This document shows, piece by piece, positions 1 through 60,639 of a stretch of 64,000 bases of DNA. The notes beneath the pieces are model-generated. The model did no database searches. It was given only the letters and a program-made list of their open reading frames with translations, and was not told the DNA's origin. The position numbers were made by a program, and so were the translations under genes. The stretch is from Mobula hypostoma (lineage: Eukaryota): NCBI RefSeq assembly GCF_963921235.1, contig NC_086097.1, positions 3,162,001 to 3,226,000 on the forward strand. Direction: 5' to 3'. Every line of letters begins with the position of its first letter. Position 1 is the first letter of the stretch.

Positions 1-106
1 TTTGGAACCATTTTCTAAATTACTGAGCTTTGTGATTCAGAATGGAGTCTTCACCCTTGCATACCTTGTTGAACTGTGTGGATTGTGTTATCGAGCATTC
101 AATAAG
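1..106 (+). CDS. UNC79: UNC79 coding exon (5' part outside window): LEPFSKLLSFVIQNGVFTLAYLVELCGLCYRAFNK
   Basis: Frame from nt 2 is open to AAG|GTAAAA donor at 107; peptide matches recalled vertebrate UNC79 and joins in phase 0 to the next exon (ERDKFYLSR). Confidence 0.9.
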
Positions 107-1691
107 GTAAAATCTTCACTTCCCTTTAGGATTTTTGTATTGAATAAATCTATATCTTTTTAAGGCCGCCTTATAAATAATGTCACGTCATGGTGAACGC
201 ATTGACATGGTTCAGATGTATGGCTGTTATAATCAGGATAGGATCACGCTTAATATCATCAGCATATGTCGTGAAATTTGTTAACTTTGCGGCAGCTGTA
301 CAATGCAATATGTGACAAAATAGAAAAAATGAATTGCAGTAATTCAATATATGTATATTAACTAGCTAAAATAAGTAGTGTAAGAACAGAAATTAAAAAA
401 AAGTATTGAGGTAGTGTTCATGGATTCAATGCCCATTTAGAAATAAGATGGCAGAGGGGAAGAAGCTGTTCCTGAATCACTGAGTGTGTGCCTTCTGGCT
501 TCTGTACCTCCTACCTGATGGTAACAGTGAGAAAAGGGCATGCCCTGGGTGTGGAGGTCCTTAATGACGGACACCGCCTTTCTGAGACACCGCTCCTTTA
601 AGATGTCGTGGATACTATGAAGGCTAGTACCCAAAATGGAGGTGACTAATTTTACAACTTTCTGCAGCTTACTGATCCTGTGCAGTAACGCTCCCCCCAT
701 ACCAGACAGTGATGCAGCCTTTCAGAATGCCCTCCACAGTACAAACCAAATCTCCTCAAACTCCTAATGAAATATAGCTGCTATCTTGCCTTCTTTATAG
801 CAGTATCAATATTTTGCAACTAGGTTATATCCTCAGAGACACTGACGCCCAGGAACTTGAAATTGATTGCTCTCTCCATTTCTGATTCCTCTGTGAGGAT
901 TGGTGTGTGTTCCCTCATCTTACCTTTCTGAAGTCCACAATCAGCTCTTTGACCTTACTGATGTTGAGTGCCAGGTTGTTGCTGCGACACCACTCAGGTT
1001 GTTGGTATATCTCGCTCTCGTACACCCCCTCGTCTCTTTCTGAAATTCTGCCTACAATATTTGTATCATCAGCAGATTTATAGATGGTATTTGAGCTATG
1101 CCTAGCCACACGGCCATGGGTGTAGAGAGAGTCGAGCAGTGGGCTAAGCACACATCCCTGTGCACCAGTGTTGATTGTCAGCGAGATTGAGATGTTATCA
1201 CCAATCTGCTCAGATTGTAGTTTTCTGGTTAGGAAGTCAAAGGTCTAGTTGCAGACAGAGGCATAGAGGCCTAGGTCCTATAGCTTTTCGATCAGACCTG
1301 TAGGGATGATGGTGTTAAATGCCGAGCTACAGTCAATGAACAGAGTCCTGACATAGGTGTTGGTGTTGTCCAGGTGATCCAAGGCTGTATGGAGCCATTG
1401 AGATTGTGTCTGCCATAGACATATTGTGGTGATAGGCAAATTGCAGTAGGTCCAGGTTCTTACTGAAACAGGTGTTGATTCTAGCCATGACCAACCTCTT
1501 GAAGCATTTCATCTCCATAATTGTGATTGCTACTGGATGATAATTGTTGAGGCAGCTGACACTGCTCTTCTTCGACACTGGTATAATTGTTGTCCCTTTG
1601 AAACAGGTGGGAACTTCTGTCTGTAACAATGAGAGATTGTAAATGTCTTTGAATACCCTCGTCAGTTGGTTGGCACAAGTTTTCAGAGCCT

Positions 1692-6400: not shown

Positions 6401-7253
6401 TGTTAACCGAAATATCTTCTTTATGATTAATTGTAAAAAAAAGCTCAATCTGTTCATTCATAAAATTAACAAAGTCCGAGTCCTGAAGCAACAGCGAATT
6501 AAAACGCCATTGTCTATTATTTGGTATATTGGCCATAATTTTAATAGAAAGCTTAAGTGGAGCATGATCCGAAATGGTTATAGAATCATAATCACATTTA
6601 ATCACTGAAGGAATAAGACGAGAATCAATGAAAAAATAATCAATTCTTGAATAGGAATGATGAACATGTGAAAAGAAGGAAAAATCTTTTTCCTGAGGAT
6701 GCAGAAAACGCCAAATGTCCGTCGACCCAGAATCAGAAAGGAAAAAATTAATCAGATTTGCAGATTTATTAGGTAAAGTCCGTAAAGGAGCCGAACGGTC
6801 CAAAGCTGGAGACAAACAGGTATTACGATCTCCGCCCCAAATCAATGAAAACTCGTTCAAATTCGGAAACTGATCAAACAATGATTTATAAAATTCCGGA
6901 CAATCCATATTAGGAGCATAAACATTAACCAAAACTACTTTTTTATTAAATAGTAAACCACTAACCAATAAAAATCTACCATTCGGATCAGAGAAAATAT
7001 CCTGTTGTATAAAAGTAACTGAGGAATCTATAAAAATAGAGACGCCTCGAATCTTAGCATTGGAGTTCGAATGAAATTGTTGTCCCTTCCAGAATTTGAA
7101 AAAACGTAGTCTGTCCCCCCTCCGTACATGGGTCTCTTGTAAAAATAAAATTTGTGCTTTAAGTCTCCGGAACACTTTAAAAACTTTTTTCTTTTTAATA
7201 GGATGATTAAGACCATTAGTATTCCAGGAGACAAAATTAATAATAGACTCCAT
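3477..7253 (-). CDS. L1 ORF2p (APE endonuclease, reverse transcriptase, C-terminal CCHC), 1258 aa from ATG at 7253
   Basis: SWNTNGL, LQETH, NVYAPN, SRIDYF, SDH; KAPGPDG, YRPISLLN, DAEKAFD, QGCPLSP, YADD; CDRC-x8-H-x4-C; no stops. Confidence 0.96.
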   Translation of the reverse strand: MESIINFVSWNTNGLNHPIKKKKVFKVFRRLKAQILFLQETHVRRGDRLRFFKFWKGQQFHSNSNAKIRGVSIFIDSSVTFIQQDIFSDPNGRFLLVSGLLFNKKVVLVNVYAPNMDCPEFYKSLFDQFPNLNEFSLIWGGDRNTCLSPALDRSAPLRTLPNKSANLINFFLSDSGSTDIWRFLHPQEKDFSFFSHVHHSYSRIDYFFIDSRLIPSVIKCDYDSITISDHAPLKLSIKIMANIPNNRQWRFNSLLLQDSDFVNFMNEQIELFFTINHKEDISVNTLWDTFKAYIRGQIISYSVALRKKQKQEEMAIVDKIKEIDKKYVMASSEEVYKQRTELQMEHSLLLSSSIVNQLKKTRSDFYVHSDKIGKLLANQLKSNYVKSQINQIYNQNDRLILDHVGINQTFCDFYSSLYQSESPRDSKYMNDFLDKLDFPQISQDMSSLLDTSITMDEIKNVIFSMNLGKAPGPDGFTVEFYKCFASLLIPWLCRVFEASLKLGKLPESFNRASISLILKKDKDPAQCASYRPISLLNVDSKVFSKLLANRLEKVLPSIISEDQTGFIKGRYSFYNIRTLLNIVYTPSQNVPECVISLDAEKAFDRVEWPYLFKVLEMFNFSLKFISWIKLLYHSPVASVRTNSLNSPFFPLFRGTRQGCPLSPLLFDIALEPLAIAIRESSNITGITRGLKSHKLSLYADDLLLYISNPERSIPAVLELLAQFGLFSGYKLNLSKSELFPINKHLPLYYKFPFKLINNYFSYLGIKITCKYKDLFKTNFLPLIDHITQLSSKWFPLYLTLIGRINAVKMFFLPKFLYVFQALPIFVPKSFFDKVDSKISSFIWQNKNPRLGKIHLQKAKRDGGLALPNFRFYYWAINIRHMKFWLLDRDILSIPKWVALELQSVQGYTLGSILGSSLPFDSKHLKQVSNPIVKYALRIWFQFRKFFDLNQFGLAIPILGNIFFPPSFTDRAFQTWKTKGILRFLDLFLDGSLMSFEQLSNKYNLSRIHFFRYLQVRNFLSTILSSFPMLPPTYILDSIINLNPCQKGASAMIYNIIMKLRKAPFDKNRVDWEQELGLTISVDDWGQILQLVNTSSICAKHSLIQFKVVHRAHMSKDKLARFYSHINPFCDRCSGQIASLTHMFWSCPTLETFWRDIFNIISKVLNIDISPHPITAIFGLPKISSNLSPSARRMIAFLTLMAKRCILQHWKELNAPTTFFWFSQTILCLNLEKIRSNLYDSSFKFEQIWGPFIRYFHLM

Positions 7254-7972
7254 AAATCCTAAAGTCAACCCACAACAAGGAGGATTGACGATAGGTGCGA
7301 CCCACAAACCCGGAGAGGAAACAGAACATACAAAAGATACCGGGAAAAAGGACGCAACCAGTACTTCAATAATGTATATAGCCCAAAGAGAAACAAACTA
7401 AAACGTGAAGCCCCTCCCACCACCCCCCGCCCCAAGACCTCAAGGCAAAATCTAAAGCAGACCCGCCAGAAAGAAGCAAGCGCTAAAACTACCCCCATGA
7501 CTTCCGGTATACGCTCCCTAAAAAAAAGGTATAAATATGAAAAGGATCAGCTAATTGTAAAACAGTAAAAAAGTAAGTAAAAAAAAGTTAGCTCAATTAA
7601 AATACCCACAGAACAGAACAAAAGCCGGAAAATATATATTAAAAAAACCACAATAAACCTCAAACCCATGAATAGACACAGCAACAAGAAAAAATAGGAT
7701 TATTGACATAAAGTGGTTATAAAAAGCAAAACAGAATAAAATTTAAAAAAAACTACAAAATTTAAGGCCACACAGGAAATACGTAAAATGACAAAAGGGA
7801 AGTAACCACCCAGAATCCCCTGGGAAAAGAAAGAAATGACGCAGTTAAAAAGAAAGTTTAGCGACCATATTAAGAAATCAAAAATAAACTTTTCTGCCCA
7901 GATAGGGCACGAAAAAGTTAAAACCAACCAATTCACAGCCTCCGATCAACGGAGATAATTAAAAAAAGGCAA

Positions 7973-24450: not shown

Positions 24451-25476
24451 CTTTCATTGCTCTGGATGAGACCAAATACAAACTGTATAGTTACTCGATT
24501 GAACAATTGTATTCAGAAAGCAGGTGTGCCTCTGAGCTTTTATTCGATACTTTGTCATTTGAACACCCCTCTCCATTTCATACTTCAGAATAGAGAATCA
24601 TGGAAATGTATCAGTATCTGTGGAAATGTCAGCCTATTCTGACGTCCCTGTTTCTAGTAAAACATTCAAGTAAAGGCACTTCACCTTTTAATTAGGCTCT
24701 TCTATTTAGTAAATGCATCTCCATTTTCTGTAACTTTATTTAACAAGCATGTTTTTTTTTTAGACAGGAAATTCTTAAAACGGTAAGACCGTAAGATGTA
24801 GGAGCAGAATAAGACCATTCAGCACATTGAGTGCTCCACCATTACATCGAGGCTGATTATATCCCTCTCAACCCTATTCCCTGCCTTCTACCCATAACCT
24901 TTAATACCTGACTAATCAAGAACCCATCAACCTTCGCATTAAGTATATTCAATGATTTGGCCTCCACAGCCATCTGCAGACCCACGTCCACTGGAGGCTG
25001 GAAGCCTGTCCTGGGGTTGAAGGACTCTGTTTGTGTGTGTGTGTGTGTGTGTGTGGAATCAGGTTTGTTTTGTCGTTGTTGCTTCTTGTTGTTCTGACAA
25101 GCATTGTGGGCATGCTATTGTGGCGCTGGAATATGTGGCCACACTTGTGGGCTGCCCTCAACAACACATCCTTGGGTGTGTTGTTTGTTAACACAAATTA
25201 CTCACGTATTTCACTGTATGTTTTGGTGTACACATAAATAATCTTGAATCTTGAATTTCAAGTACAAATGTGGCTGCGATGAATATGATTTAACTTGAGT
25301 TTCCTGGGGAATGTACACTAATTTCATCCTTGAATGTTTAAGAAACAAATTGTATCAGTGTGGTGATCAACAGCAGCCAGAGTTTTGATGCAGTTTGTAC
25401 TTAGACTGCTTTTGAAGTGGCTATAGGTTCTATTCTGTCTTACGTTTTTTTTGTATTTTGTGCTTGTATTTTGCAG

Positions 25477-25581
25477 GAACGAGATAAATTCTATCTCTCA
25501 CGATGTGTTATACTTGAATTATTACAAGCACTCAAATTAAAATCTCCAATACCAGACACCAATCTTTTGCTGCTGGTACAG
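25477..25581 (+). CDS. UNC79: UNC79 coding exon: ERDKFYLSRCVILELLQALKLKSPIPDTNLLLLVQ
   Basis: Polypyrimidine tract + TTGCAG acceptor, 105 nt, CAG|GTAAAA donor; matches recalled UNC79 C-terminal region. Confidence 0.93.
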
Positions 25582-25799
25582 GTAAAACTTTGTTCATATC
25601 CTTGGGATATCCTTTACTTATCAAAATATGAGTTACAGTCTACCTGAGTTGTCTCCAAATTGTTGCATCAGTAACTATAGAAGCTACATTTTGGGTAAAT
25701 TTGGTGAGTTACAATAGGACCAGTGTATGTACAATAATAGAGCAGATATTGGGTGGTGTATAGACACAACAACATGGAAGTTTATGAATCCTTAAATAT

Positions 25800-36985: not shown

Positions 36986-37995
36986 CTGTGTGTTGCTAAA
37001 TTCCTGCACTATTCTCTGTGTTTTGCTGAGTTCCTGCACCATTGTGTGTATTGCGGAGTTCCTGCACCATTTTATTTGTGTTGCTGAGTTCCTGCACCAT
37101 TGTATGTGTGTTGATGAGTTTCTGCACCATTTTGACTGTGTTGCAGAGTTCCTATAGTATTGTGTGTGTTATAATTCCTGCAGAATTTTGTGTTTTTTGC
37201 TGAGTTCCTGAAGCATTGTGTGTTTTTGCCGAATTCCTGCAATGTTGTGTGTTTTTGCTGTTCCTGCACCATTATGTGTTTGTTGCAGAGTTCCAACAAC
37301 ATTGTGTGTGTGTGTGTTGCCAAGTTCCTGCACTATTGTTTGTATATTGCTGAGTTCCTGCACCATTGTGCGTGTTGCCGAGCTTCTGCACCATTTTGAC
37401 TGCGTTGCAGAGTTCCTGCAGCATTGTGTGTTATAATTCCAGCAGAACTTTGTGTTTTTTGCTGAGTTCCTGCACCGTTGCATGTGTATTGCTGAATTCC
37501 TGCACCATTGTGTGTTTGTTGCCAAGTTCCAGCAACATTGTGTGTGTGTTGCTGTGTTCCTGAACCATTGTGCCTGTATTACTGAGATTCTACACTATTG
37601 TGTATGTGTTGCTCAGTTCCTGCAGCATTGTTTTTTGCTGAGTTCCTGTACCATTGTGTCTGTGTTGCTGAATTCCAGCAACATTGTCTGTGAGTTGCCG
37701 AGCTTCTGCACCATTGTGTGCATGTTGCTCAGTTCCTGCGCCATTGTGTCTGTGTTGCCGAGTTTCTGCACTATTGTAGTATGTATTACTGAGTTTTTGC
37801 ACCATTGTGTGTGTGTTGCTCAGTTCCTGCAGCATTGCGTGTGTTGTGAGTTCCTGCACTATTCTGTGATTTTTGCCAAGTTCTTGCACTATTGTGTGTG
37901 CAATGCTGAGTTCCTGCAACATTGTGTGTGTGTGTTGCCGAGATCCTGCGCCATTTTGTGTGTGTTGCCTAGTTCCTGCATCATTGTGTATGTGG
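36985..37995 (+). repeat. Minisatellite, ~28-30 bp unit GCTGAGTTCCTGCACCATTGTGTGTGTT (largest block)
   Basis: Directly visible tandem array; further blocks ~29770-29860, 33455-33635, 38385-38635, 39790-39865, 42630-43230, 43460-43640, 45590-45670, 48245-48490. Confidence 0.95.
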
Positions 37996-38639
37996 GAAAT
38001 TCTTCAATCAGGGCGCTTGTGACTACTGGAAATTTAAAGTAAAAGATAATCTTTAACGCTCTCTTTTGTTTATGTTATAATCTTTATTTTGTGATCTGGA
38101 CTGAAGATCAGATCCTGGCATTGATCAACCTTCAAGAGAAGTTTATATTTTAAGGCATTTTTGCAGAGTTTTCACTGATGAGCACATTACCATCACATCA
38201 TCAAAATACTGAAGTTTATTTGAAATGAAATGAGAAAGAAAGATTTGAAAGTCAATCCTGCAAATAAAGACCATGCCCTTGAATAAATTTGTTTTAACTC
38301 ATTTTTAAGAACATTCAAAATATATTTTTGAGACACATTTTCTTAAGTGAGTCAATATTTTCCTTGGCTAATCAATGAAACATTCCTGTACCATTGTGTG
38401 TAGCTACGTTCCTACGCCATTGTGTGTGTGCTGTTGTGTCCCTACACCATTGTGTGTGTGTTACTGTGTCCCTGCACCATTGTGTGTGTTTTGCTGAGTT
38501 ACAGCACAATTGTATGTACATGTTCCTTAGTTCCTGGTCACCTTTCGTGTGTCATGCTGAGTTTCTGTACCATTGTTTGTGTGAGGTTAACCGAGTTCCT
38601 GCCCTATTGAGTGTGTGTTGCTGAATTCCTGTACACCGT

Positions 38640-42085: not shown

Positions 42086-42850
42086 CAACAAAACCCCCTT
42101 TTTAACTGGGCATCTCTGGAAATGCAGCTTGTTAGCCCCTCAGTAACAGCCACTGGACTCTGCAGTGAGGGAACCACCTTTTCAGATTCCATACGTCTAG
42201 AAAGTATCTGACTTTGGTACTGCCAGACCTGTGAGGTTGGGATGTCTTGCACACCCAAACCCTGGTTTGTGTGAATGCTGTTTGATTTACTGCCCACTGC
42301 AATCGCCCGTTGTCAAGAAATAACAGATTGTACAATGCATACAATTATAAAGAAAGTATATTTATGAACCTTAACCAAATAGTTAGTAAAGACATTAAAA
42401 ATCAGGAAGGTGGAACTGGGAGAAGGGCCCATTATAATTAAGAAGTCACATATGCACAGGTGGAGCTCAAATCTTCCAAAAGTTGTTGTTTCTGAAGTAC
42501 TTATTGCATCAACCCCTATTCACCGCTGCCCAGTACAAGTTCCCCTCTTGGCTCCATCAGATCGCGTGTACCTGCCGAATCAAATCCTACTGTCGGTTCT
42601 CTCGAGCCCCTTCTCTCTCCATCTCCGTTCCTCAGTTCCTGCATCATTCTGTGTGTGTTGCTAATAACTCGCATCATTGTGTGTGTGTTGTTGAGATCCT
42701 GCACCATTTTGTGTAATTTTTGAGTTCCAGTACCACTTGGTGCCTGTTAGAGCAGCATTTTGTGTACGTCTTCCTGAGCTCCTGCACCAAATGTCTTTGT
42801 GTCGATGAGATTCTGTGCCATTGTGTGTGTGTTGCTGATGTCCTATACCG

Positions 42851-43089: not shown

Positions 43090-43639
43090 GGTGAACTGCT
43101 GCATCGTTGTGTGTGTGTTGTTGAGATCTTGCACCATTCTGTGCATGTTACTCACCACCTACGCCATTGTGTGTGCGTTACTCACCTCCTACGCCATTGT
43201 GTGTGCCTTTCTGAGTTCCTACACCAATTTCATTAGATCAGACTAAATGGGAGCAGAATTAGGTCATTTGGTCCCATCGAGTCTGCTCTGCCATTTCATC
43301 ATGGCTGATCCAATTTTCTTCTAGTCCCCAATTTCCTGACTTCTCCTCGTATCCTTTCATGCCTTGACCAATCAAGAATCTATCAACCTCTGCCTTAAAT
43401 ATACATAAAGACATGGCTTACATAGCTGCCTGAGGCAAAGAATTCTGTAGGTTCACCACGTTTTGTATGCGTGTTCCCCAGTTTCTGCTCTATTCTGTGT
43501 CTCATGCCTAGTTCCTGTATGTGCATTGGCAATTTCCTGCACCACGTTGTATGTATTGCAGAGCTCCAGCACCATTCTGTGCACGCATTCTCAACTTTCA
43601 GCGCCATTTAGTGTGTGTTGCTGAGTTCCTGCACCATTT

Positions 43640-46600
43640 TAAGATCATAAGACATAGGAGCAGAATTAGGCCATTTGGCCCTTGGAGTCTACCCCACCAT
43701 TCAATCATGGCTGATGCTTTTTCCTCCTCTCAGCCCCACTCCTTAGCCTTCTCCCTGTAACCTTTGACCTGTGTCCAATCAAGAACCAATCATTCTCCAC
43801 CTGAAATACACCCAACAACCTGGCCTCCACACCTGCTTGTGGTAACAAATTCCACAAATTCACCACCCTCTGAATAAAGACATTTCTCTGCATCTCTGTT
43901 TTAAATGGACACTCCTCTATCCTGAGGCTGTGCCCTCTTGTTCAAGATTGCCACGCCACAGGAAACATCCTTTCCATATCTATTCTGTCTAGGCCTTTCA
44001 ACATTCAAACAGTTTCAATGAGATTCCCCCTCATCCTTCTGAATTCCAGCGAGTACAGACCCAGAGTTCCTGCACCATTTTACGTTCAAACGTTCCTTGT
44101 ATGATAACCCTTTAGTTTCTGGAATAATCCTTGTGAACCTCCTCGAACCCTCTCCAATGCCAGCACATCGCTTTTTAGCTGAGGAGCCCAAAACTGTTCA
44201 CAATACTTAAGGTGAGGCCTCACCAGTGCCTTATAAAGCCTCAGCATCACATCCCTGTTTTTGTATTCTAGACCTCTTGAAATGAATGCTAACATTGCAT
44301 TTGCCGCCTTCACCACAGATTCAACCTGCAAGTTAACCCTTAGGGTGAGTGAGCAAGGACTCCTAGTCCCTTTGCATCTCAGATTTTTGGATTTTCTCCC
44401 TGTTTAGAAAACAGTGTGCACACTTATTCCTACTACCAAAGTGCATGACCATGCAATTTCCAACATTGAGTTTCATTTGCCAATTTCTTGCCCATTTCCC
44501 TAATTTGTTTAAATTCTTCTGTAGCCTACCTGTTTCCTCAACACTACTTGCCCCTTCACTAATCTTTTTATCATCTACTCCCTTGTTCCAGAAAGGGAGT
44601 AAAGATAACCCAAGAAATTGTTTCTATTGGTCCGTGTGCAGGTCAGTGGGACTAGGCAGAAAATGGTTCGGCACAGCCAAGAAGGGCCAAAAGGCCTGTT
44701 TCTGTGCTGTAGTTTCTATGGTTTCTATGGTTTCTAAATTATAGACCAGTGAGTCTGACTTCCGTGGTGGGCAAGTTGTTGGAGAAGATCCCGAGAGACA
44801 GAATCTGATTAGGGATAATCAGGATGGCTTTGTCAAGGGTAGGTCGTGATTTACGAGCCTGATTGATCAGAGGGCACAAGCTATAACAATGTTGGACAAA
44901 CTTGGGTTGTTTTCTCTGGAGTGGTGGAGGCTGAGAGGGGATCTGATGGACGTTTATAGGATTATGAGAGGCATAGATAGAGAAGACAGAGAGTATCTTT
45001 TTCCTCAGGGTTGAAATGTTTAATATCAGAGGACATGCATTTAAGGTGAGAGAGGATAATTTCAAAGGAGATGTGAGGGGTAGGTTTTGTTTACACAGGA
45101 AGTGGTGGGTGTCTGGAATGTGCTGCCTGGGGTGGTGGTAGCAGCAGATGCGTCAGGAACTTTTAAGAGACTTTTAGATTGATGCATGAACATGAACAAG
45201 AACATTCCTTCCACATCCACTCTATCAAGGCTTTTTACCATTTGCTTGCTTTCAATTTGGTCATGCCTCATTCTTCTGAATTGCAGTGAATACAGACCCA
45301 GAGCCATCAAATGCTCTTCATATGACAATTCATTCAATCCTGCAATCATTTTCCTGAATCTCCTTTGAGCACATCCTTTCTAAGATAAGGGGCCCAAACT
45401 TGATCAAAATACTCTAAGTGAGGCCTCACCGGTGCTTTATAAAGTTTCAACATTACATCCTTGCTTTTATAGTCTAGTCTTCTTGAAATTAATGCTATCA
45501 TCACATTTGCTTTTCTTACCACAGACTCAACCTATAAATTAACCTTTAGGGAGTCCTGCACAAGGACTTCCTAAAGGTTAATTCCGGGACTATTTTGTGT
45601 GAGTGCTCCCGAGTTCCTGCACAATTTTGTGTGTGTTGCTGAGTTCCTTCGCCATTGTGTATGTGTTGCCATGTTGCTATACCCTACATATTGAAATCCC
45701 TCTGACTATTTTGGCATACATTTTCTACCTCCCATTGTACTATGTAGACCACATCCTTACTACTGTTTGGAGGTCTGTATATGATTCCCACCAGGGTCTT
45801 TTCACCCTTGCAATTCCTTAGCTCTATCCATAATGGTTCAACACCTTTTGACCCTATGTCACCTCTTCCTAATGATTTGATTTCATATTTTACCAGCAGA
45901 GCCACGCCACCCTCTCTGTCTTCCTGCCTGCCTTTCGATACAATGTGTATCCTTAGACATTAAACTCTCAGCTATAATCTTCCTTCAGCTATGATTCACT
46001 GATGCTTGCAACATCATACCTGCCAATCTGTAACCATGCTACAAGTTCATCTACCTTAATCCGTATAATGTGCACATTCAGACATAACACCTTCAGTCCT
46101 GTATTCACCCTTTTTGATTTTGTGTGCCTTTTACATTGCAGCTCATCCTGTTGTCTGCAATTGTGCCTCTCCTTGCTTGAAGTCTCATTACATATTGCCT
46201 CTTTTTGTAAACCAACTACTTTAAACCACCTTAGGTTCAGGTGTAACCTGTCCCTTTTGTACAGGTCATACCCTCCCCAGAAGAGATCTCAATGATCCAT
46301 AAACATGAACCCCTGCCCCCTGCCCCCTGCACCTGATTCTCAGCCGCGCAGTCACCTGCCAAATCATCCCACTCTTAACCGCACTGGCAGATGGCACAGG
46401 AAGCAATTCAGAGATTACTACCTGGAGGTCTAATTTCTCAACTTGCTACCTTGCTCTTACCTTGTCTACGTGTATCTTTGGTGCCAATATGTACCAAGAC
46501 TTCTGGCTGCTCACCCACATCCTTGAGAATGCCATGGACCTGATAGGAGATATCTCTGATCCTGGCAACAGGGAGGCAACATAATATCCAGGTTTCTCTA

Positions 46601-48190: not shown

Positions 48191-48914
48191 CTAGTGGTGA
48201 CTGCCTCTCTGTAGCTCCTGCCTATCACCTCCTCATTCTTCCATTATGTGTGTGTTGCTGAGTTCCTGCACCATTGTGTGTGTTCAGTTCTTACCCCTTC
48301 GTGTCTGTGTATTGCTAAGTTCTTTCACCATTGTGTGTGTCTGTGTGTGTGTTGAGTTCCTGCACTATTGTGTGTGTGTGTTGCTGTGTTCCTGCACTAT
48401 TGTGTGTTTTGCTGAATTCCTACATCATTGTGTGTGTGTGTTGAATTCCTGCACCACTGTGTGTGTGTGTGTGCGTGTGTGTTCCTGAGTCTCTGTACCT
48501 GTTGTTGTGTTCTTTATCCGAGTACATTGTACCTTTAGTCCTTAAACTGAAGTTGATTTTGGGCAGAAATACTTTGTAAGTTCAATCTAAATTAATATTT
48601 ATTTGATCGTGGTATCTGACAGAAACTGAAGCTAAATTGAAGATTCTTTGAATCATTGTCTTTAGTTGCTGTTCATTAATCATAAATAATGATGCATCTT
48701 TTCATGTTTAAAGAAAATTATTAAGTAATATTGCTGAAATGGTTGAAGATGGGTATGCTGTGATTTACCTATAATGTGCAAGCAGGAACTTTGTGCAGGA
48801 GTGATGAATGATTGCTGTTGTCTGAAGGTTGCTATTTTAGAATAATGGAAATGTTCTAATAAATGGATGAAATGATGATGTAAAAAGCAAATGGATCTCT
48901 CTTGTCCTTACCAG

Positions 48915-50424: not shown

Positions 50425-50910
50425 GTCATGGAAAAGTACAGCACAGAAACAGGCCCTTTGGCCCATTTAGTCTGCACTGAGCCATTTAAAATGCCTACTG
50501 CCCTCGACCTGCACTGTGACCGTAGCTCCCCATACCCCTATCATTCATATACCCATCCAAACTTCTCTTAAATGTTGAAATTGAGTTTCCATGCACAACT
50601 TGCACTGGTAGCCTGTTCTACACTCTCATGAACCTCTGAGTGAAGAAGTTTCCCCTCAAGTTCCCTTTAAATTTTTCACCTTTCACCATTAACCCATGAC
50701 CTCTGGTTGTAGTCCCAACCAACCTCAGTGAAAGAGCTTGCTTGCATTTACCCTATCTATACCCCTCATAATTTTGTATACCTCTATCAAATCCCCTCTC
50801 AATTTTCTATGTTCTAAGAATAGTCTTGACCTATTCAATCTTTCCTCCAGACACAGCAAAATCCTTGTAAGTTTTCTCTGTACTCTTTCAACTTTATTTA
50901 CATCTTTCCT
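50425..50910 (-). mobile_element. CR1 3' fragment
   Basis: RGDLIEVYKIMRGIDRV. Confidence 0.8.
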
Positions 50911-51179
50911 CACACATCCCTCACATATCCATTCAGCAAATCCGTATCATCAAGTCCTGTCACATCTAATCATAAAATGATGTTGCACAATTAAACAGCT
51001 AACAGGGGGAAGAGTCTTTGAGAATGTCACCATCCTCACTGATAGGTGCACCCAGCAACCAAGTGGTAAGCCACTTACAACTTCAGCCAGAAGTCTGACT
51101 GAATATTTCATCTTCTGAGATGCCCATTATCACAGAAACCATTGAGTTCAATTCTAAATACACATCACGAAAAGGCACC

Positions 51180-51625
51180 TCACAGAAAAGGCTGGAGGAA
51201 CTCAGCAGGTTAGGCAGCATCTATCTCATTCCACCAAGAGGCAACTCTGAGCGTAATAGGAAGTCATTCCTGCCTGTGGCCGTCAAACTTTACAACTCCT
51301 CCCTTGGAGGGTCAGACACCCTGAGCCGATAGGCTGGTCATGGACTTATTTCCTGGCATAATTTACATATTACTATTTAATTATTTATGGTTTTATTACT
51401 ATTTAATTATTTATGGTGCAACTGTAATGAAAACCAATTTCCCTCGGGATCAATAAAGTATGACTATGACTAATTAACAGTTGTGTAGGGCCAAGAACAT
51501 TCATCAGGACTGGAAAGGAATGGGGAGGAAGCCAGAATAATGAGATGGGGGGTGGTGTGGGGGAAGGAGTATTATCGTTTCCATAGATGCTAACTGACCT
51601 GCTGAGTTCCTCCAGCATTTTCAAG
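51180..51625. mobile_element. Penelope terminal-repeat remnant with inverted ends, containing a short Rex 3' end (~51225-51470)
   Basis: GCTGGAGGAACTCAGCAGG at 51190 vs CCTGCTGAGTTCCTCCAGC at ~51598; (ATGACT)n tail inside. Confidence 0.7.
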
Positions 51626-51706
51626 TTTATGGTTATTTAACTGTGCACGTGTATACCGCCAAATGAAATAACGTTCCTCCGGATCAAAGTACACAACAGC
51701 CTACAT

Positions 51707-51709
<3 letters not shown>

Positions 51710-51742
<33 letters not shown>

Positions 51743-51752
51743 CTCTCTCTCT
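51710..51752. repeat. (CA)n(CT)n microsatellite
   Basis: Direct. Confidence 0.9.
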
Positions 51753-52749
51753 CACAATATGAAGTAATATTACCACAAATAAATTAATAAATAATGAAGT
51801 GCATTTGTATATGTTGCTCTGGATTTCCAATGTCTGCAGAATCTCTTGTTGAAGAAAAGGCTGAGGGCACTACATAGAACAAAATCTGTGAGAATAAGAA
51901 ACAATTAGCTTGTAGCATTGAATACTAGCATTCTAAAGTGGACTGTATCTTAATCGAGACACCTACTTGAAAATGTGGAAGATTTCTCAGGTGTGTCTTG
52001 CTCACACAAAAACAAGAAAAATCCATTCTGGCTAATAACCAGCCATTTAAAGCATTCTCAGTTGTCAGCACGTTGATGGAACGTATTGCCAACCGTGTTA
52101 ACATGCAGTGCTTATTCTCCAATATCATGCTCAGTAAGTACTGCTTTGGGATCACTCTCCAGATGTCATCACAACCTTCGTGCAGTCATGTCAGAAGAGT
52201 ATGATTGCTCTTGACTACAAAAAAGTATCTGATCAAATGTGGATTCAAGGTGCCTTGAAAATCCCGAAGTCAGTGACTGTTAAGTGGAAACCATTGCAAT
52301 CATTGGCGTCACTTCTTGCATAAAGTAAGAATTATTTTTGCCACAAAAGAATCTGCAGATGCTGGAAATCCAGAGCAACATACACAAAGTGCTGGAGGAA
52401 TTCAGCAGGCCAGGCAGCATCTATGGAAAAAAAGTACAGTCTGTGTTTCGGGCCGAGACCCTTCAGCAGGACTGAATGATGCCAAACAGTTAATCAGCCC
52501 AAGGACATCACTGAGGAATTCTTCTGTCTGGTATCCTTGGCCCAAACCATCTTCAGCTCCTTCATTAATGACCTTCCTTCCCCATGAGTTTTAATGCTGA
52601 TTGCACAGTACTCAGCCCCATTAGCAAATATGCTTCATGTAAACAGCCCACAATTGCATGTAATAAGGGCAGAATAATATTCCAGTATAAGCTGATTTAT
52701 AATATTCATATCACAAATGTGCCAGGCAATTTCACTGACAAAAAAAAAG

Positions 52750-52980
52750 CATAGTAACAGGCCCTTCTGGCCCAACGAGCCCATGCTGCCCCGTTATACC
52801 CATGTGACTCATTAACCAACGCCACGTCTTTGGAATGTGGGGGAAACTGGAGCACCGAGCATAAGCCCAAGCAGTCAGAGGGAGAATGTAGAAACTCCTT
52901 AGAGACAGTGGGAGAATTGAACCCGGGTCGTGGGCACTGTAATAGTGTAGTGCTAAGTTCTGTACTACCATAGCGCCCCT
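52750..52980 (-). mobile_element. tRNA-derived SINE
   Basis: Head GGGGCGCTATGGTAGTACAG, B-box-like GGTTCAATTCT, CR1-like tail; related remnants at ~13820-14010 and ~49020-49290. Confidence 0.65.
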
Positions 52981-53182
52981 CTGTTACTCTGCGACATTAC
53001 CACCATGAATATTCTAGGACAGCATTGAACAAAATCTTAGCTAACCAGCCATCTCAATACTGTGGTCATTATGAAAGATAAACTTGTCTTCTGAAACTCC
53101 AAAGTCTTCGCACCAGGTGTAAGACATGCCAGCAGCGTGATAGAATATTCTCCACTTACCCAGACACATTCATTTCAATTGG

Positions 53183-54444
53183 AAACACAAAATACTCTGC
53201 AGATGCTGGGGTCAAAGCAACACTCACAACAAACTGGAGGAACTCAGCAGGTCGGGCAGCATCCGTGGAAACGATCAGTCAACGTTTCCTAGTTCCTCCG
53301 TCTTCGCCGCATCTGCTCCCAGGATGAGGCTTTCCGTTCCAGGACATCTCAAATATCATCTTTCTTTAAGGATCAGGGTTTCCCTTCTGCCGTCATCAAT
53401 GATGCCCTCACCTGCTTCTCCTCCATTTTCCGCACTTCGGCCCTCACCCCATCCTCCCGTTACCACAACAGGGACAGAGTTCCCCTTGGCCTCACCTACC
53501 ACCCCACCAGCCTCCAGATCCAGCACATTATCCTCCGCAACTTCCGCCACCTTCAACAGGACCCCACCACTAAGCACACCTTTCCCTCTCCACCCCTCTC
53601 TGCTTTCCGCAGGGATCGGTCCTTCCGCAACTCCCTGGTCCACACGTCCCTCCGGACGGATCTCCCACCCGACACTTATCCTTGCAAGCGTAAGTGCTAC
53701 ACCTGCCCCTACAGCTCCTCTCTTGCCAGTATTCAGGGCCCCAAACAGTCCTTCCAGGTGAGGCAACACTTCACTTGTGAGTCTAATGGGGTCATCTATT
53801 GCATCCGGTGCTCCCGGTGCGGCCTCCTCTACAGTGGTGAAACCCGATGTAGACTGGGGGGCCACTTCGTCAGCACCTCCGCTCCGTCTGCCAAAACAGA
53901 CAGGATCTCCCAGTTGCCACCCACTTCAACTCTGCTTCCCATTCCAATTCAGATATGTCCATACATGGCCTCCTCTACTGCCATGATGAGGCTAAACTCA
54001 GGTTGGAGGAGCAACACCTTATATACCATCTAGGTAGTCTCCAGCCCCTTGGTATGAACATAGAATTCTCCAACTTCCGGTAATTCCCTCCCCCTTCCTT
54101 CCCCTATCCCTATGTCACTCTGCCCCCTCCCCCAGCTGCCTATCACCTCCCTCATGGTTCCGCCTCCTTCTACTACCCATTGTGCTTTCCCCTATTCCTT
54201 CTTCACCTTTCCTGCCTATCACCTCCCTGCCTCCCTTCCCCCACCCCTTTATCTTTCCCCTTACTGGTTTTTCACCTGGAACCTACCAGCCTTCTCCTTC
54301 CCACCGTCCCCCCACCTTCTTTATAGGGCCTCTGCCCCTTCCCTCTACAGTCCTGACGAAGGGTTCCGGCCTGAAACGTCGACCGATCTTTTCCACGGAT
54401 GCTGCCCGACCTGCTGAGTTCCTCCAGCATGTTGTGAGTGTTGC
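53183..54444 (+). mobile_element. 5'-truncated Penelope-like element with GIY-YIG remnant and inverted 5' terminal repeat
   Basis: FTCESNGVIYCIRCSRCGLLYSGETRCRLG; 53213-53288 is an inverted copy of 54373-54446; 14-bp TSD TTCATTTCA(A/G)TTGG at 53169-82 and 54445-58. Confidence 0.9.
54348..54385 (+). ncRNA. Minimal type I hammerhead ribozyme motif in Penelope terminal repeat
   Basis: CAGTC-CTGACGA-A-GGGT tccg GCCT-GAAAC-GTC-GACCG: intact core, stems I and II, loopless stem III. Confidence 0.7.
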
Positions 54445-55479
54445 TTCATTTCAGTTGGCTCCCAAGAAGCAGAATGAGGCAGCCCGAATGGAATCTGACT
54501 ATCATCCTATTTGTTCATTACCTCAATGATTAGTGCATCATGACTTCGAGCAGATGGGGGTTGTTAGCCATGGTTGGTAGCTCATCTAGGGGAAGGAAAA
54601 CTCCACTACCTTGCAGCTATACCCACTCATGGAGAAGGCTTTGGGAGTAAACCCCGAGGGAAATATCCGGAGCTGGAGTCCCTAAGGCAGTCCTATGTTG
54701 AGTTCAACGCTGACTGGCAACTCCTGTGATGCTGCTGTTACCAAAGTGTATCAGTTGCTGCCATTCCTTTGGATTCATCAGATGCAGAGCGGGGGTGGGG
54801 GGGGGGGATGCTACATGGGCAACAGCTTGTTTTCCATATCACACTGCCCTGGCTTGCATATTACCTCAACAGCTGGGATGCAACCTCCATGATCGATACT
54901 GACTAAGCTGCAGTGTGTATCATTGTCAAAGTACCTCAGTAAGGAACTCGGAAAGATTCTCCCAGACCTCTGCCCACCACCACTGATAGGACAAAGGTAT
55001 CAGTGAATGGGAAAACAATTTGTATCTTCCTCTCCAAGTGCACACTATCCTGACTAAGATCATTGCTGAGTCTAAATCCTGGAACTCAATGACATTGTGG
55101 CAGTACTTTCATCAGAAGGACTTTAGTGGCCAAGGTGAGAGCTCAGTCCTCTTTGGTGATGAGAAGTAGCTAGTGGTCTTGCAGGTGGTATCTGAACACA
55201 ACGGATAATACATCTTTTGTTCCCTTGTACCTGTGCAAAAGTGGACTGAAGTGCCTGAATTCCTGGGATACAGTTACACTTGCAGAATTCTCAGAACTTG
55301 TCCACATCTATTCAACGTTAGTGGTTTTGGAATGAAGTAGGATGTCCTCAGTAAGTGCAAACTGAAAAAGTAACGTTTTATTTGTATCCTTACAAACATG
55401 CAACGGTGTATTCTGATGATGAACTGGAAGTTATCATGGCTATTTATTATGTACCATATTCTAGATTAATTAGATAATT

Positions 55480-56215
55480 AATGCAGACAGTTGTGAGCTG
55501 TTGCAATTTGGGAGGATAAACCTGGGTGGGTCTTACACGGTGAGCAGTAGGGCACTGGGGAATGCAATGGAACAAAGGGACCTTAGAATAGAGATACCTT
55601 ATTCTTTGAACGTGGCACCACAGGCTCATAAAGAGAGCTTTTGACACATTGGCCATCGTAACTCAGGGCACTAAGTACAGGAGTTGGAATGTTATGTTGA
55701 AGTTGTATAAGATGCTGGTGAGGTGAATTTTGGAGTATTTTGTGCAGTTTTGATCACCTACCTGCAGGGAAGATATTAACTAAGCTGATTCCACAACCTA
55801 CAGACTCCACAACTCATGTTCTCAGTATTATTTATTTATTAGGAAAGATACTAGCAAGAGTCAAAGATTAGAAATAAAGGGAACCTTTTCTGATTGGCTG
55901 TGAGGAGTATAGCTAGGGTGAATGCTTGCAGGCGTTTTCCCCTCAGGGTGAGTGTGAAAGGTGAACTATTTAAGGGGAATTTGAGTGTGAATTTCGTCAC
56001 TCAGACAGTGGTATGAGTGTGGATGACCTCCCAGTGGAAATTATTGATGGGAGGTTAATTATTACATTTAGGGAACATTTAGATAGGCCCATGGAGGAGA
56101 GGGGTATGGCATTCTTTGGTCAGGTGCAGGCAGATGGGATGAGGCAGAAGGCCAGGTTGGCACAGACTAGTTGGACCGAAGGGCCTGTTTCAGTGTTGTC
56201 GTGCTTTATGATCCA
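55480..56215 (+). mobile_element. Old CR1 3' fragment
   Basis: Degenerate RT and 3' end similar to other CR1 copies. Confidence 0.65.
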
Positions 56216-56452
56216 TGATGTCTTTTCGAGGCATCAGACCTTGAATATGTTATGGATGCTGGGAAGGGTACTGTGCACGATGGATGGAGCTGGTTGAGTT
56301 CACAACTTTCTGCAGCTTAGTTTTTGATTCTGTGCAGTGGCTCTCCTCCATATGAAACAGTTAAATACTGTATTGGTAAATTGTGATTCATTAGGTTCTT
56401 TAAAGAAATACAGTAATTGTTTACTTTGTGCAAAGAAATCTGCATATGAAAG

Positions 56453-57515
56453 TGACGCACTCAAAATGCTGGAGACGCTCAGCAGGCATTGTAGAAAAGA
56501 GTACAGTCACTGTTTCAGGCTAAGGCCCCTCAGCAGGACACTCTCAGGATAAGGCTTTTCATTCCAGAATGAAGGAGATGTTCTCCAGAACTTCCACCAC
56601 CTCCAACGGGATCACATCACCAAGCACATCTTTCCCTCCTCCCCATTTCTCCCTATGCAACTCCCTTGTCCAATTGTCCTTCCTGGCACTTACCTTGCAA
56701 GCGGAACAAGAGCTGCACCACCTCCTTCACTGCTATTCAGTGCCCAAACAGTCCTTCCAGGTGAGACGACACTCCACCTGTGAGTCTGTTGGGGTCATAT
56801 ACTGGGGTCCTATACTGTGTCCAGTGCTCCATGTGTGGCCTCCTGTGTATGGGTGAGACCTGACGTAGATTGGGAGACCACTTTGCCGAGCACCTACACT
56901 CTGTCCCCCAGAAGAAGCAGGATCTCCCAGATGCCCCCCATTTCAATTCCATTTCCCATTCTCATTCCGATATGTCTATCCATGGCCTCCTCTACTGTTG
57001 CGATGAGGTCACACTCAGGCTGGAGAAACAACACCTTATATTCCACCTTTGTAGCCTCCAACCTGATGGCATGAACATTGACTTCTCTAACTTCCGGTAA
57101 TGCCCCACTCCCCCCTCCCCCCCCCGCCACTTCACCATTCCCCATCCCTTTTTCCCTCGCTGACCTTATCTCCTTGCCTGCCCTCTGGGGCTCCTCCTCA
57201 CTTCTCTTTCTTCCATGGCCTTCTGTCCCCTCCTATTAGATTCCCCCTTCTCCAGCCCTGTATCTCTTTCACCAATCAACTTCCCAGCTTTTCATCCCTA
57301 CCATCCCGGTTTCACCTATCATCTTGTGTTTCTTCCTCCGCCCCCCCCCACCCCACCTTTTAAATTTACTCCTCATTTCCTCATCTTTTTTTCTCCAGTC
57401 CTGCTGAAGGATCTTGGCCTGAAACATCAACTGTACTCTTTTCCATAGATGCTACCTGGCCTGCTGAGTTCCTCCAGCATTTTGTGTGTTGCTTGGATTT
57501 CCAACATTTGCAGAT
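56453..57515 (+). mobile_element. Penelope-like fragment
   Basis: TCESVGVIY, GDHFAEHL, RLEKQHLIF; terminal repeat with degenerate hammerhead at 57396-57433; inverted repeat at 5' end. Confidence 0.85.
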
Positions 57516-57521
57516 TTTAAA

Positions 57522-58190
57522 ACCGCAAACACGAAGAAATCTGCAGAAGCTGGAATTTCAAGCAACTCACATACAAATTGCTGGTGAACGCAGTGGGCCA
57601 GGCAGCATCTATAGGAAGAGGTACAGTCGATGTTTCAGACCGAGACCCTTCGTCAGGACTAACTGAAAGAAGAGATAGTAAGAGATTTGAGAGGGAGAGG
57701 GGGAGATCCGAAATGATAGGAGAAGACAGGAGGGGGAGAGATGGAGCTAAGAGCTGGAAAGTTGATTGGCAAAAGGGATGTGAGAGGATCATGGGACAGG
57801 AGGCCAAGGGAGAAAGAAACGGGGAGGGGGGGGAAAACCCAGAGGATGGGCAAGGGGTATAGTCAGAGGGACAGAGGGAGAAAAAGGAGAGAGAGGGAAA
57901 AAAAAATAATAATAAAAAAAATAAATAAGGGATGGGATACGAAGGGGAGGTGGGGCATTAACGGAAGTTAGAGAAGTCAATGTTCATGCCATCAGGTTGG
58001 AGGCTACCCAGACGGAATATAAAGTGTTGTTCCTCCAACCTGAGTGTGGCTTCATCTTTACTGTAGAGGAGGCCGTGGATAGACATATCAGAATGGGAAT
58101 GGGACGTGGAATTAAAATGTGTGGCCACTGGGAGATGCTGCTTTCTCTGGCGGACAGAGCAGATCTGCAGATTTTCTCTTGTTTTTGCAT
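57522..58190 (-). mobile_element. Penelope-like 3' fragment, tail-to-tail with previous copy
   Basis: Terminal repeat with hammerhead motif 57624-57660 (CTGACGA...GAAAC ATC GACTG); short inverted tail at ~58163-58188. Confidence 0.85.
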
Positions 58191-58667
58191 ATAAAAGTGT
58201 GTTTCTTAATTCTAATCAGAGACATTTATTGAGGCTAGAAACTCCCCATTGAAAATCTTGATGGTACCAAAGGGCTTTCCAGCTGATATATCAAATTGTT
58301 AGCTGCTGTGCAGTGACCTTGGTGTTGGTTGTGGAGAAAGCTCTTGCAAATTGCTCCCATACATAAACTGAAGGATGCTGATGTAGTCTTGTAACACTGT
58401 AGTGTAGTGAAGAAGCAGTGAAAAATATTTCAAGGATGAGATATTTTTGAGGATATGCCATGTCAGTTCAGAGCAGATGAGGCACAATTGCTGTTTATAA
58501 TGTAGGGAAGTATGAGCTCTGATATTAATAATTCTTGAAATTAATCATTCTTAAAACTTCACCTTGAACGACAAGCAATTATTTCCTTACAGAGCTCACA
58601 GAAATATTGGTTTTACCGTATAGAAAGCCACATACTGTTTATTGATCACATTCTCTTTCTTTTGCAG

Positions 58668-58757
58668 TACACAACTGCTGCAATGGAATGCATGCGACAG
58701 TACATCAGCGAATTGCTGGACTTCATAGCTGATATGCACACGCTGACCAAACTGAAG
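58668..58757 (+). CDS. UNC79: UNC79 coding exon: YTTAAMECMRQYISELLDFIADMHTLTKLK
   Basis: TTCTCTTTCTTTTGCAG acceptor, 90 nt, AAG|GTATGT donor; matches recalled UNC79 AAMECVRQYINEVLDFMADMHTLTKLK. Confidence 0.93.
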
Positions 58758-58794
58758 GTATGTCATCTTTTAAAGCTTCTGTTTAAATTCATAG

Positions 58795-59510
58795 TAACAC
58801 ACACAAAATACTGGAGGAACTCAGCAGGTTGGGCAGCATCTATAGAAAGGAATAAACAGTTTCAGGCTGTGACCCCTCATCGGGACTGGAAATGAAGTGA
58901 AGGAGGGGGAGGGGAAGAAGTCAGAAGAAAAAGGTGGGAGAAGGCAAGGAGGACAAGGTAGAATGTGAGGGGTGAAGCCAGGTGGGCAGGAGAGGGAGAA
59001 TGGAATAAGAAGCTGGGAGGTAATAGGTGGAAAAGGTAAGGGCCTGCAGAAGAAGGAACTGATAGGAGAGGAGAGTTGACCATGGGAGAAAGAGAAGAAA
59101 GAAGGTGATAGGCAGGTCAGGGGAAGTGGTAGGAGGCTAGAGTAGGGAATAGAAGAAGGAAGGTGGGATGGACAAAAAACCGTAAGGAGAAATCGATGTT
59201 CATGCCATCAGGCTACCTAGACAGATTGTGATGTGTTGCTCCTCCATCTTGAGAGTGGCCTTATCGTGGCTAAACAGACCATAGACTGACATGTCGGAAT
59301 GGGAATGGAGACAGGAAATACCACATTTCCTGGGTGGAGTGTAGGTACTCGACACAGAGGTCTCCCAGTTCATGTCGAGGCTCACCAATGTAGAGCAGTC
59401 CACATCGGGAGCACCAGACACAACGGACATCCCCAGCAGATTCGCAGGTGAAGTAGTACCCCACCTGGAAGGGCTGTTTGGGGCCCTGAATGGAGGTAAG
59501 AGAGGACATG
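58795..59510 (-). mobile_element. Penelope-like fragment starting ~40 nt after the UNC79 exon donor
   Basis: FTCESAGDVRCVWCSRCGLLYIGE; terminal repeat. Confidence 0.8.
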
Positions 59511-59789
59511 AGTGGGTTATATGTACAGAAAGATGCCGAAAATATCATGAAAGATCCCACCTGTCCTGTTCACGGACTGCTTGTCCAACTTCCATCAGGG
59601 AGGAGACTATGTAGCATCCACACCATTATCACCAGACTCAAAAACAGTTACTTGCCCAAGCAGTAAGTCTGATCGACACCTCCACCCACTAACCCACCCC
59701 CTCCACACCCCCAACCACCACTACTTTATCATTTCCTGTCAGAATCCATGTATAGACCTAGTGTCACTTTATGGACTTACGATCAATCT

Positions 59790-60115
59790 GTTAAGAGGAT
59801 TAGATAGAGTGGACAGCCAGCGCCTCTTCCCCAGGGCACCACTGCTCAATACAAGAGGACATGGCTTGAAGGAAAGGAGTGGGAAGTTCAAGGGGGATAT
59901 TAGAGGAAGGTTTTTTACTCAGAGAGTGGTTGGTGAGTGGAATGCACTGCCTGAGTCAGTGGTGGGTGCAGATACACCAGTGAAATTTAAGAGACTACTA
60001 GACAGGTATATGGAGGAATTTAAGCTGGGGGGTTACATGGGAGGCAGGGTTTGAGGGTCGGTACAACAATGTGGGCCGAAGGGCCTGTACTGTGCTGTAC
60101 TATACTATGTTCTAT
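59790..60115 (+). mobile_element. CR1 3' end nested in a Rex 3' fragment
   Basis: RGLDRVDSQRLFP, FFTQRVV; similar to 41701-41915. Confidence 0.8.
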
Positions 60116-60639
60116 CTATAGAAGCTATTATATATTTATATTTATTGTGTTTATTATTATTATTATTATCATGTTCTTTACCTTATTTTGTTTTTCTGTG
60201 CTGCATGGATCTGGAGTTACAATTATTTTGTTCTCCTTTACACTTGTGTACTGCAGCAGTCTTGGGCATCAATCAATCTTGAATCTCCAGTTCAGAAGAT
60301 CACTCACAAGCACTGACATTGGCTGTGTATATGGCACAATCTCATTGCAGCTCTTAATAGATGGATCATTTGTTTCTTATTAGATCAGCAACATTTCTAG
60401 ACCAAAGTAACGAATGGACTAGAGAGGATGGGTAGAAGCAGATTATTTTCAGTAATTAAAAACAAAAAATTAGGACCATAAGACCATAAGACAAAGGAGC
60501 AGAAATTGGCCATTTGGCCCATCGAGTCTGCTCCGCCTTGGGTAAAGACCTTGGGTAAAGAGGTAAATATTGGGGATTTTGAATGCTGGTCAGAAGTAAC
60601 TTCCTTAGATAGTGCTCTGAGGTTATCATATTAATGTCT

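Follow-up and report, generated by a model that had tools for sequence, protein, structure and literature searches.

A 38-nt motif at positions 54348 to 54385 of a 64,000-nt stretch of the Mobula hypostoma genome (NCBI RefSeq assembly GCF_963921235.1, contig NC_086097.1, positions 3,162,001 to 3,226,000 of the forward strand; referred to below as the window) belongs to the minimal hammerhead ribozymes (min-HHRs) that Penelope-like elements (PLEs) carry, a known kind of hammerhead that is extremely abundant in this genome. Very probably, the copy studied here (the focal copy) is a PLE min-HHR residing in a dead, 5′-truncated element, sense within an intron of UNC79, where it is catalytically silent and without effect on UNC79. 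Coordinates are those of the window unless a contig is named.

Anatomy of the motif and its match to known hammerheads

The motif reads CAGTC CTGACGA A GGGT-TCCG-GCCT GAAA C-G-T C GACCG on the plus strand and is divided in hammerhead numbering as follows.

54348 to 54385, plus strand: minimal type I hammerhead motif (sequence read and descriptor match)
54348-54352, plus strand: 5′ arm of helix I
54353-54359, plus strand: C3 to A9 (CUGACGA)
54360, plus strand: extra unpaired A between A9 and 10.1
54361-54372, plus strand: helix II hairpin with a UCCG loop
54373-54376, plus strand: G12, A13, A14 and A15.1 (GAAA)
54377-54379, plus strand: C15.2, G16.2 and U16.1
54380, plus strand: C17, with the predicted scissile bond between 54380 and 54381
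54381-54385, plus strand: 3′ arm of helix I

An earlier note on this DNA had described a stem I with one mismatch, CUGACGA followed by an extra A, a stem II and GAAAC-GUC, and the sequence read confirmed all of them. In helix I (CAGUC/GACCG), four of the five pairs are formed, including the closing pair G1.1-C2.1, with an A.C mismatch at 2.4/1.4. Helix II consists of 4 bp, that is, G.U, G-C, G-C and U.G in the bulged-A register, while helix III has zero bases between 15.2 and 16.2 and its ACGU is self-complementary. The core bases, U16.1 and C17 are all intact.

The min-HHRs of metazoan PLEs were defined by Cervera & De la Pena (2014; PMC4209133). According to the parts of that paper available to us, on which all comparisons with it rest, they lack a helix III loop and have a short helix I, a conserved unpaired base between A9 and 10.1, a G10.1-C11.1 pair and a palindromic 15.2/16.2, with a >80% consensus of U-rich, NNN, CUGANGAH, G…C, GAAAN-palindrome-NU, H, NNN. 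The focal motif contains every element of this consensus except that 11.1 is U. Examined for the core, it carries CUGANGA, GAAA, U16.1 and H17; examined for length, its helix I falls within ~3–6 bp and is closed by the 1.1-2.1 pair. It also shares CUGACGAA and GAAA-C-G-U-C with the published examples Acropora, Ixodes 1 and S. purpuratus 1. Similar to the PLE min-HHRs of the same paper, the focal motif has a loopless helix III with a C-G palindrome, CUGANGA plus an unpaired non-G base, and a short helix I (4–5 bp) with a U/C-rich 5′ flank. It likewise lies in the terminal region of the element, downstream of the reverse transcriptase-endonuclease (RT-EN) open reading frame (ORF), and occurs in very high copy number, mostly in 5′-truncated copies that sometimes carry a second, opposite-strand motif at the 5′ end. 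In contrast, its helix II is only 4 bp long, whereas 5–8 bp are common in the published alignment, and most copies in this genome (36,185/44,018) depart from the consensus in having G.U instead of G-C at 10.1/11.1, although several published min-HHRs also show G.U there. The 40 species in Figure S3 of that paper include no cartilaginous fish.

Compared with canonical type I hammerheads (Rfam Hammerhead_1; the Schistosoma and newt satellite type), the core, the strand order and the U16.1/H17 cleavage-site rule are alike, but the focal motif has neither a helix III stem-loop nor a defined loop 1 for loop-loop contact, and it gets no score from the Rfam models. An extra unpaired base at the 5′ end of helix II is also found in viroid hammerheads (De la Pena & Flores 2001, cited in the available parts of PMC4209133), which, unlike the focal motif, are type III, with full helices, and belong to circular RNA replicons.

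The core boxes alone occurred at chance level in the window (7 matches vs. 6.51 expected). The full min-HHR descriptor, made up of helix I, core, optional bulge, helix II, GAAA, palindromic insert, U and H, matched one site on both strands of the window, namely 54348; the mean in 300 dinucleotide shuffles was 0.0067, with one or more sites in 2 of the 300, a figure that is indicative only because the descriptor was composed after the motif had been seen.

The Penelope-like element and its copies in the genome

The motif is carried by an element with the following parts.

53289 to 54447, plus strand: 5′-truncated PLE copy of ~1.16 kb (3′ boundary common to related copies; 5′ boundary at the junction with the inverted copy)
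53293 to 54033, plus strand: C-terminal remnant of the PLE ORF, a 246-aa open frame (translation)
54386 to 54447, plus strand: 3′ tail past the cleavage site, with the very abundant CCTGCTGAGTTCCTCCAGCA block (family alignment)
53190 to 53288, minus strand: inverted, 5′-truncated partial copy of the PLE tail, adjoining the element's 5′ end (complementarity)

The hammerhead motif is located 63–100 nt from the 3′ end of this copy, and its placement is identical in three near-full-length relatives (L038–L040). These relatives were reached via a protein search, after six of six close copies extended upstream had proved to be 5′-truncated. The 246-aa frame contains a CX3CxxC linker motif and a GIY-YIG-type endonuclease stretch (…VIYCIRCSRCGLLYSGET…). 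Among the 150 genome matches listed for it, which exclude the window's own copy and were drawn from 213,487 first-look candidates (not copy numbers) in the 3.48-Gb genome, identities were 73–86%, and some of the matches lie in open frames of up to 864 aa. A Pfam search of the 246-aa remnant in the window returned no family. The relative L038, however, has an 808-aa ORF with RVT_1 (E 0.0011, 19.2 bits; cut-off 29.6) followed by a C-terminal GIY-YIG at residues 768–805 (E 0.0064, 17.2 bits; cut-off 22.6), a domain order that fits a canonical endonuclease-carrying (EN+) PLE, with both domains sub-threshold. The database homologues of this ORF carry PF00078, and many also PF01541; of the named homologues, the closest are uncharacterised proteins from sharks and one ray.

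The arms 53215–53288 and 54373–54446 are 93% complementary, forming a 74-nt inverted repeat with ~1.1 kb between the arms. The inverted copy begins inside the hammerhead, at about G12, and on this copy only the tail is extended by ~25 nt (53190–53214); an inverted 5′ copy is also present in L038 and L040. PLEs were described as highly 5′-truncated, with an inverted 5′-truncated copy, a one-sided ‘tail’ of 30–40 bp, and hammerheads in their terminal repeats (Craig et al., 2021, PMC8557442, in the parts available). The truncation, the inverted 5′ copy and the tail extension of the window element match this architecture. Taken together, the ORF remnant, the position and the published class bear out the earlier proposal of a PLE-type minimal type I hammerhead in the terminal region of the element.

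Some further features of PLE insertions were noticed at their ends. Simple insertions (the junctions of L002–L030, and window 54440–54450) end …GTTGCTT and then C, while inverted 5′ copies continue …GTTGCTT-TGACCCCAGCATCTGCAG…; these junctions fit the one-sided ‘tail’ extension and the internal start of reverse transcription that have been reported for PLEs. Four pairs of intact motifs on opposite strands were found head to head, 0–36 nt apart (G000:C1:109233-109337, 2546805-2546874, 4659451-4659530 and 5439083-5439170). They are presumably inverted 5′ junctions of PLE insertions, and would be expected to form long hairpins in RNA. In addition, contigs of several organisms (runs X1, X3, X19 and X20), compared with window 53600–55200, cover the PLE part at 90–99% likeness and leave the unique flanks uncovered, that is, they cover only the repeated parts 53600–54463 and 54572–54895, and their depth peaks over the last ~100 nt of the PLE. 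The PLE family thus seems to be common to related species, with tails far outnumbering bodies.

Among characterized elements, Anolis Poseidon PAc (PMC11167929, parts available) is likewise an EN+ PLE of a vertebrate whose hammerhead has no helix III, and its copies also stop at a defined internal site with a ‘tail’ signature. However, the PAc motif overlaps the start codon at the pLTR/ORF junction, whereas the focal motif is situated ~315 nt past the ORF remnant and ~65 nt before the 3′ end. The non-LTR retrozymes (bioRxiv 10.64898/2026.07.22.740005, parts available) also have a type I hammerhead related to PLE termini and need neighbour copies for an active dimer, but they are tandem repeats giving circular RNAs, while the focal motif is contiguous with a PLE coding remnant. 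A tandem repeat search over 50500–60500 found three arrays, none containing the motif. A retrozyme was therefore rejected, as there is no head-to-tail array with the motif in this interval and the nearest sense copy is 3,048 nt off.

A 121-nt query gave 41 listed genome matches, 40 of which, the focal copy included, span the query at 94–100% identity. Variation among the 35 close copies falls almost entirely at the six CpGs of the motif, and the unpaired A (equivalent to 54360) is present in 35/35. The focal copy differs from the majority of the 35 at one position, 54372, where it has T instead of the C of 27/35. A 35-nt degenerate pattern of the motif had at least 44,018 exact matches in the genome, ~1 per 79 kb, vs. 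0 for the reversed control; this single-pattern count exceeds the ~9,000 of Xenopus and the ~4,000 of the coelacanth (PMC4209133), with methods that are not comparable. As 36,185 of the 44,018 matches (82%) have T at 11.1, the G.U of the focal copy is probably the state of the dominant subfamily rather than a defect of its own.

To compare more distant relatives, 103 copies (102 distinct rows) were gathered, namely those in the window, those flanking the first loci, and those of 43 additional loci chosen to span 73–86% protein identity; 60 of them retain both core boxes and 25 pass the full descriptor. Between four subfamilies (57, 4, 5 and 11 copies; clusters of <4 left out), the majority states differ at 51/55 upstream and 27/59 downstream columns, but at only 6/38 columns of the motif (Fisher p = 1e-14 and 0.0024, respectively). 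Within the motif, the six that vary are position 2.5, two positions of loop II, and 11.1, 1.4 and 1.5, none of them a core base, and the motif has the same position in every PLE subfamily sampled. The 38-nt motif is a conserved island across the subfamilies.

Such an island could also be kept in active PLEs for a role other than cleavage, for example RT/endonuclease binding or a 3′ template signal, with the hammerhead core as a leftover or a parasite of the PLE. The island is contiguous with the conserved 3′ tail, and 40/40 aligned close copies run ~67 nt past the cleavage site, although the query itself spanned that site. In the available parts of the respective papers, Anolis hammerhead mutants showed no effect on insertion and cleavage depended on protein (PMC11167929), and hammerheads were suggested merely to parasitise PLEs, their function being called unclear (Craig et al., 2021, PMC8557442). 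However, what the subfamilies hold constant coincides exactly with the catalytic core and the inner pairs of the helices, whereas variation is seen in loop II and the distal part of helix I, and hammerheads with robust self-cleavage occur in the PLEs of plants, fungi and protists (PMC4209133). A non-cleavage role is considered unlikely, though it deserves more weight than the other alternatives treated below. Within this one family it can be seen what stays fixed, namely the core and the inner helix pairs, and what varies, which bears on the question of what PLE hammerheads are for.

Catalytic prospects of the copy in the UNC79 intron

The genes and motifs needed to place the focal copy in UNC79 are given here.

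2-154, plus strand: UNC79 exon (tblastn)
25474 to 25593, plus strand: UNC79 exon upstream of the motif-holding intron (tblastn; 85–89% identity to three named or UNC79-like proteins, 56% to a fourth)
58647 to 58757, plus strand: UNC79 exon downstream of the motif-holding intron (tblastn; 73–76% identity to two proteins, a third aligning over 58554-58760)
57396 to 57433, plus strand: second sense copy of the motif in an older PLE fragment, core-dead (sequence read)

Since the flanking exons 25474–25593 and 58647–58757 are on the plus strand, the focal motif is intronic and sense to UNC79, as had been claimed earlier. Consistently, four exons matching the Pfam UNC-79 domain lie on the plus strand of contig C1 upstream of the window, and 24 pieces of a named UNC79 protein matched the plus strand, reaching up to and into the window. 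Four matches of the genome pattern fall inside the UNC79 span, and two of them are sense, the focal copy and C1:3109497-3109531, the next intact sense motif in the gene, 107 kb from the focal one. On the opposite strand, an antisense PLE tail (58793-58888, minus strand) starts ~36 nt past the 3′ end of exon 58647–58757, just beyond the splice donor.

The second sense copy that the earlier note had reported at 57396–57433 exists and is core-mutated. It reads CUGCUGA and GAAACAUC, with A6→C, 16.2 G→A and 1.1 G→A, and lies 3,048 nt from the focal motif in a separate PLE fragment of the same UNC79 intron; no other sense copy was found within 10 kb of the focal motif.

In active PLEs, the 38-nt module would be kept under selection, and the PLE hammerhead is thought to act on PLE RNA by self-cleavage, either as a dimer or with help from PLE protein. 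With zero bases between 15.2 and 16.2, a monomer should be unable to form helix III, so that the predicted sole active architecture is a double hammerhead held together by pairing between the ACGU palindromes of two copies. Helix II would tie core strands 1 and 2 to one molecule, while the strand with 16.x, C17 and 1.x would come from the partner, each core thus cutting after C17 of the other copy. Because it is the core of the partner that would do the cutting, the A6→C change makes 57396 unable to cut after C54380, and the 57396 heterodimer was rejected on topology and A6→C as a route to that cut. The focal core, for its part, might at best act on 57396, with a mismatch in helix III and the 1.1-2.1 pair broken; a mutant with this closing pair disrupted is among the constructs in the Figure S6 legend of the 2014 supplement (PMC4209133, parts available).

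Folding energies were also calculated. For the monomer, the minimum free energy (MFE) structure had −9.4 kcal/mol, with the core GACG paired to CGUC at the cleavage site, vs. −3.9 for the hammerhead structure, and for the homodimer the double hammerhead had −5.3 vs. a cofold MFE of −23.9. A duplex with the upstream inverted copy, covering G12 through helix I, reached −133.7 kcal/mol. Since the focal copy lacks an intact sense partner in its vicinity, its helices are weak and the structures that compete with them are strong, it is most likely a silent passenger.

The contrary, that the focal copy is active in UNC79 pre-mRNA through a sense partner, PLE transcripts in trans or PLE protein, cutting the intron and possibly lowering UNC79 output, is very unlikely. 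Its core, U16.1 and C17 are intact, no other copy in the window satisfies the full descriptor, it lies within an intron in the sense direction, and the at least 44,018 matching motifs, including the sense C1:3109497-3109531 in UNC79, are possible partners; in addition, a PLE protein can switch on a PLE hammerhead in vitro (PMC11167929). However, in the nearest sense partner, at 57396, A6 is replaced by C, the helix III to be formed would contain a mismatch and the 1.1-2.1 pair is disrupted; the distance to the next intact partner is 107 kb; and both local and long-range alternatives are far more favourable than the active fold. According to the available parts of PMC4209133, monomeric min-HHRs were inactive and dimers had low activity. 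The Anolis PLE hammerhead, as described in the available parts of PMC11167929, needs PLE protein in order to cleave, is not required for insertion in vitro, and has no RNA-seq ends at its site. Moreover, with one intact motif per ~79 kb, efficient cleavage would strike most long genes. Thus, the intronic self-cleavage that the earlier note had thought conceivable does not appear to be a realistic outcome, given the dead partner, the competing folds, the potentially sequestering inverted repeat and the weak published activity, and for UNC79 the motif is probably of no consequence.

On the genome scale, the sequence-intact min-HHRs, at least 44,018 in number, could collectively act as conditional cleavage sites in host pre-mRNAs, UNC79 included, if the missing partner were supplied in trans by PLE protein or by abundant PLE transcripts. 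Many of these motifs must lie sense within introns, and if they acted in this way, PLE expression would be coupled to the output of host genes; this is nevertheless regarded as extremely unlikely. In any case, M. hypostoma is one more vertebrate genome saturated with PLE-associated minimal hammerheads, and the family, being large and young with many intact copies, would be a good system for cleavage-end mapping and tests of orientation bias.

Several results weigh against a PLE min-HHR that is silent in UNC79. The hammerhead model search proposed in the earlier note left the motif unscored by any hammerhead model: Rfam at the gathering score gave 0 matches in the whole 64 kb, and at E ≤ 10 the four matches within 54250–54480 included no hammerhead family (TTC28-AS1_3, sno_ncR3, TUG1_3 and group-II-D1D4-4, weak local matches dismissed as noise). 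The focal copy has G.U (T at 54372), not G-C, at 10.1/11.1 and the A.C mismatch inside helix I; the Pfam matches that define the PLE ORF fall under the curated cut-offs; and the fold is no more stable than shuffled sequences (z = +1.10). Across the 102 distinct copies, the covariation score was 0.095 vs. 0.109 in shuffles, paired cells made up 82.5% vs. 83.0%, and pairs with two-sided changes numbered 3 vs. 5.1. The inertness of the focal copy is itself something that we infer, partly from nearest-neighbour energies, which ignore tertiary contacts and proteins.

No covariation was thus seen in stems I and II, an outcome that the earlier note had counted against a ribozyme. It carries little weight, since the test is low in power: the helices are nearly invariant and all the copies are of one PLE lineage. 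The structure is accordingly supported by conservation and the match to a known class, rather than by compensatory change.

The lack of an Rfam match, of covariation and of a thermodynamic signal, together with the 7 core boxes vs. 6.51 expected, would also fit a hammerhead core that has arisen by chance in DNA rich in repeats. Against this stand the expectation of 0.0067 full motifs per window, the same position in every sampled PLE subfamily, 44,018 genome matches vs. 0 in the reversed control, and the feature-by-feature agreement with the published class (PMC4209133, parts available). Chance is already contradicted by the conservation and copy-number data, and its probability is negligible.

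Other motif copies and repeats in the window

A further copy of the motif, of another PLE subfamily, is antisense to UNC79.

57624 to 57661, minus strand: motif copy antisense to UNC79, other PLE subfamily (sequence read)

Both of its core boxes are intact, but with 16.2 G→A the palindrome is lost. In window 51170–59570, PLE 3′ fragments in both orientations are clustered over 8.4 kb, at least eight of them reaching the motif region or the tail. Six fragments bear the motif: 52370-52476 (minus), 54321-54450 (plus), 56447-56539 (minus), 57392-57497 (plus), 57557-57660 (minus) and 58788-58896 (minus). One starts within the motif (53209-53288, minus), two consist of tail only (51172-51224, minus, and 51573-51621, plus), and three more lie beside endonuclease ORF remnants (56524-57074, plus; 57958-58215, minus; 59200-59569, minus). 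The cluster looks like a hot spot of nested insertion.

Arrays of a 30-bp minisatellite are found at 36987-37994 (the largest, 34 copies), 38390-38517, 42637-42714, 43134-43206, 45611-45669 and 48247-48487, and their unit (…GCTGAGTTCCTGCACCATTGTGTGTGTT…) is similar to the final ~30 nt of the PLE tail (…GCTGAGTTCCTCCAGCATGTTGTGAGTGTT…). Either PLE tails gave rise to the arrays, or a widespread target repeat is imitated by the tail; PLEs were reported to favour microsatellite targets (PMC8557442, parts available). Unrelated to the hammerhead, a 1,306-aa open frame without a stop occupies 3480-7397 on the minus strand and is presumably the ORF of a young LINE-type retrotransposon.

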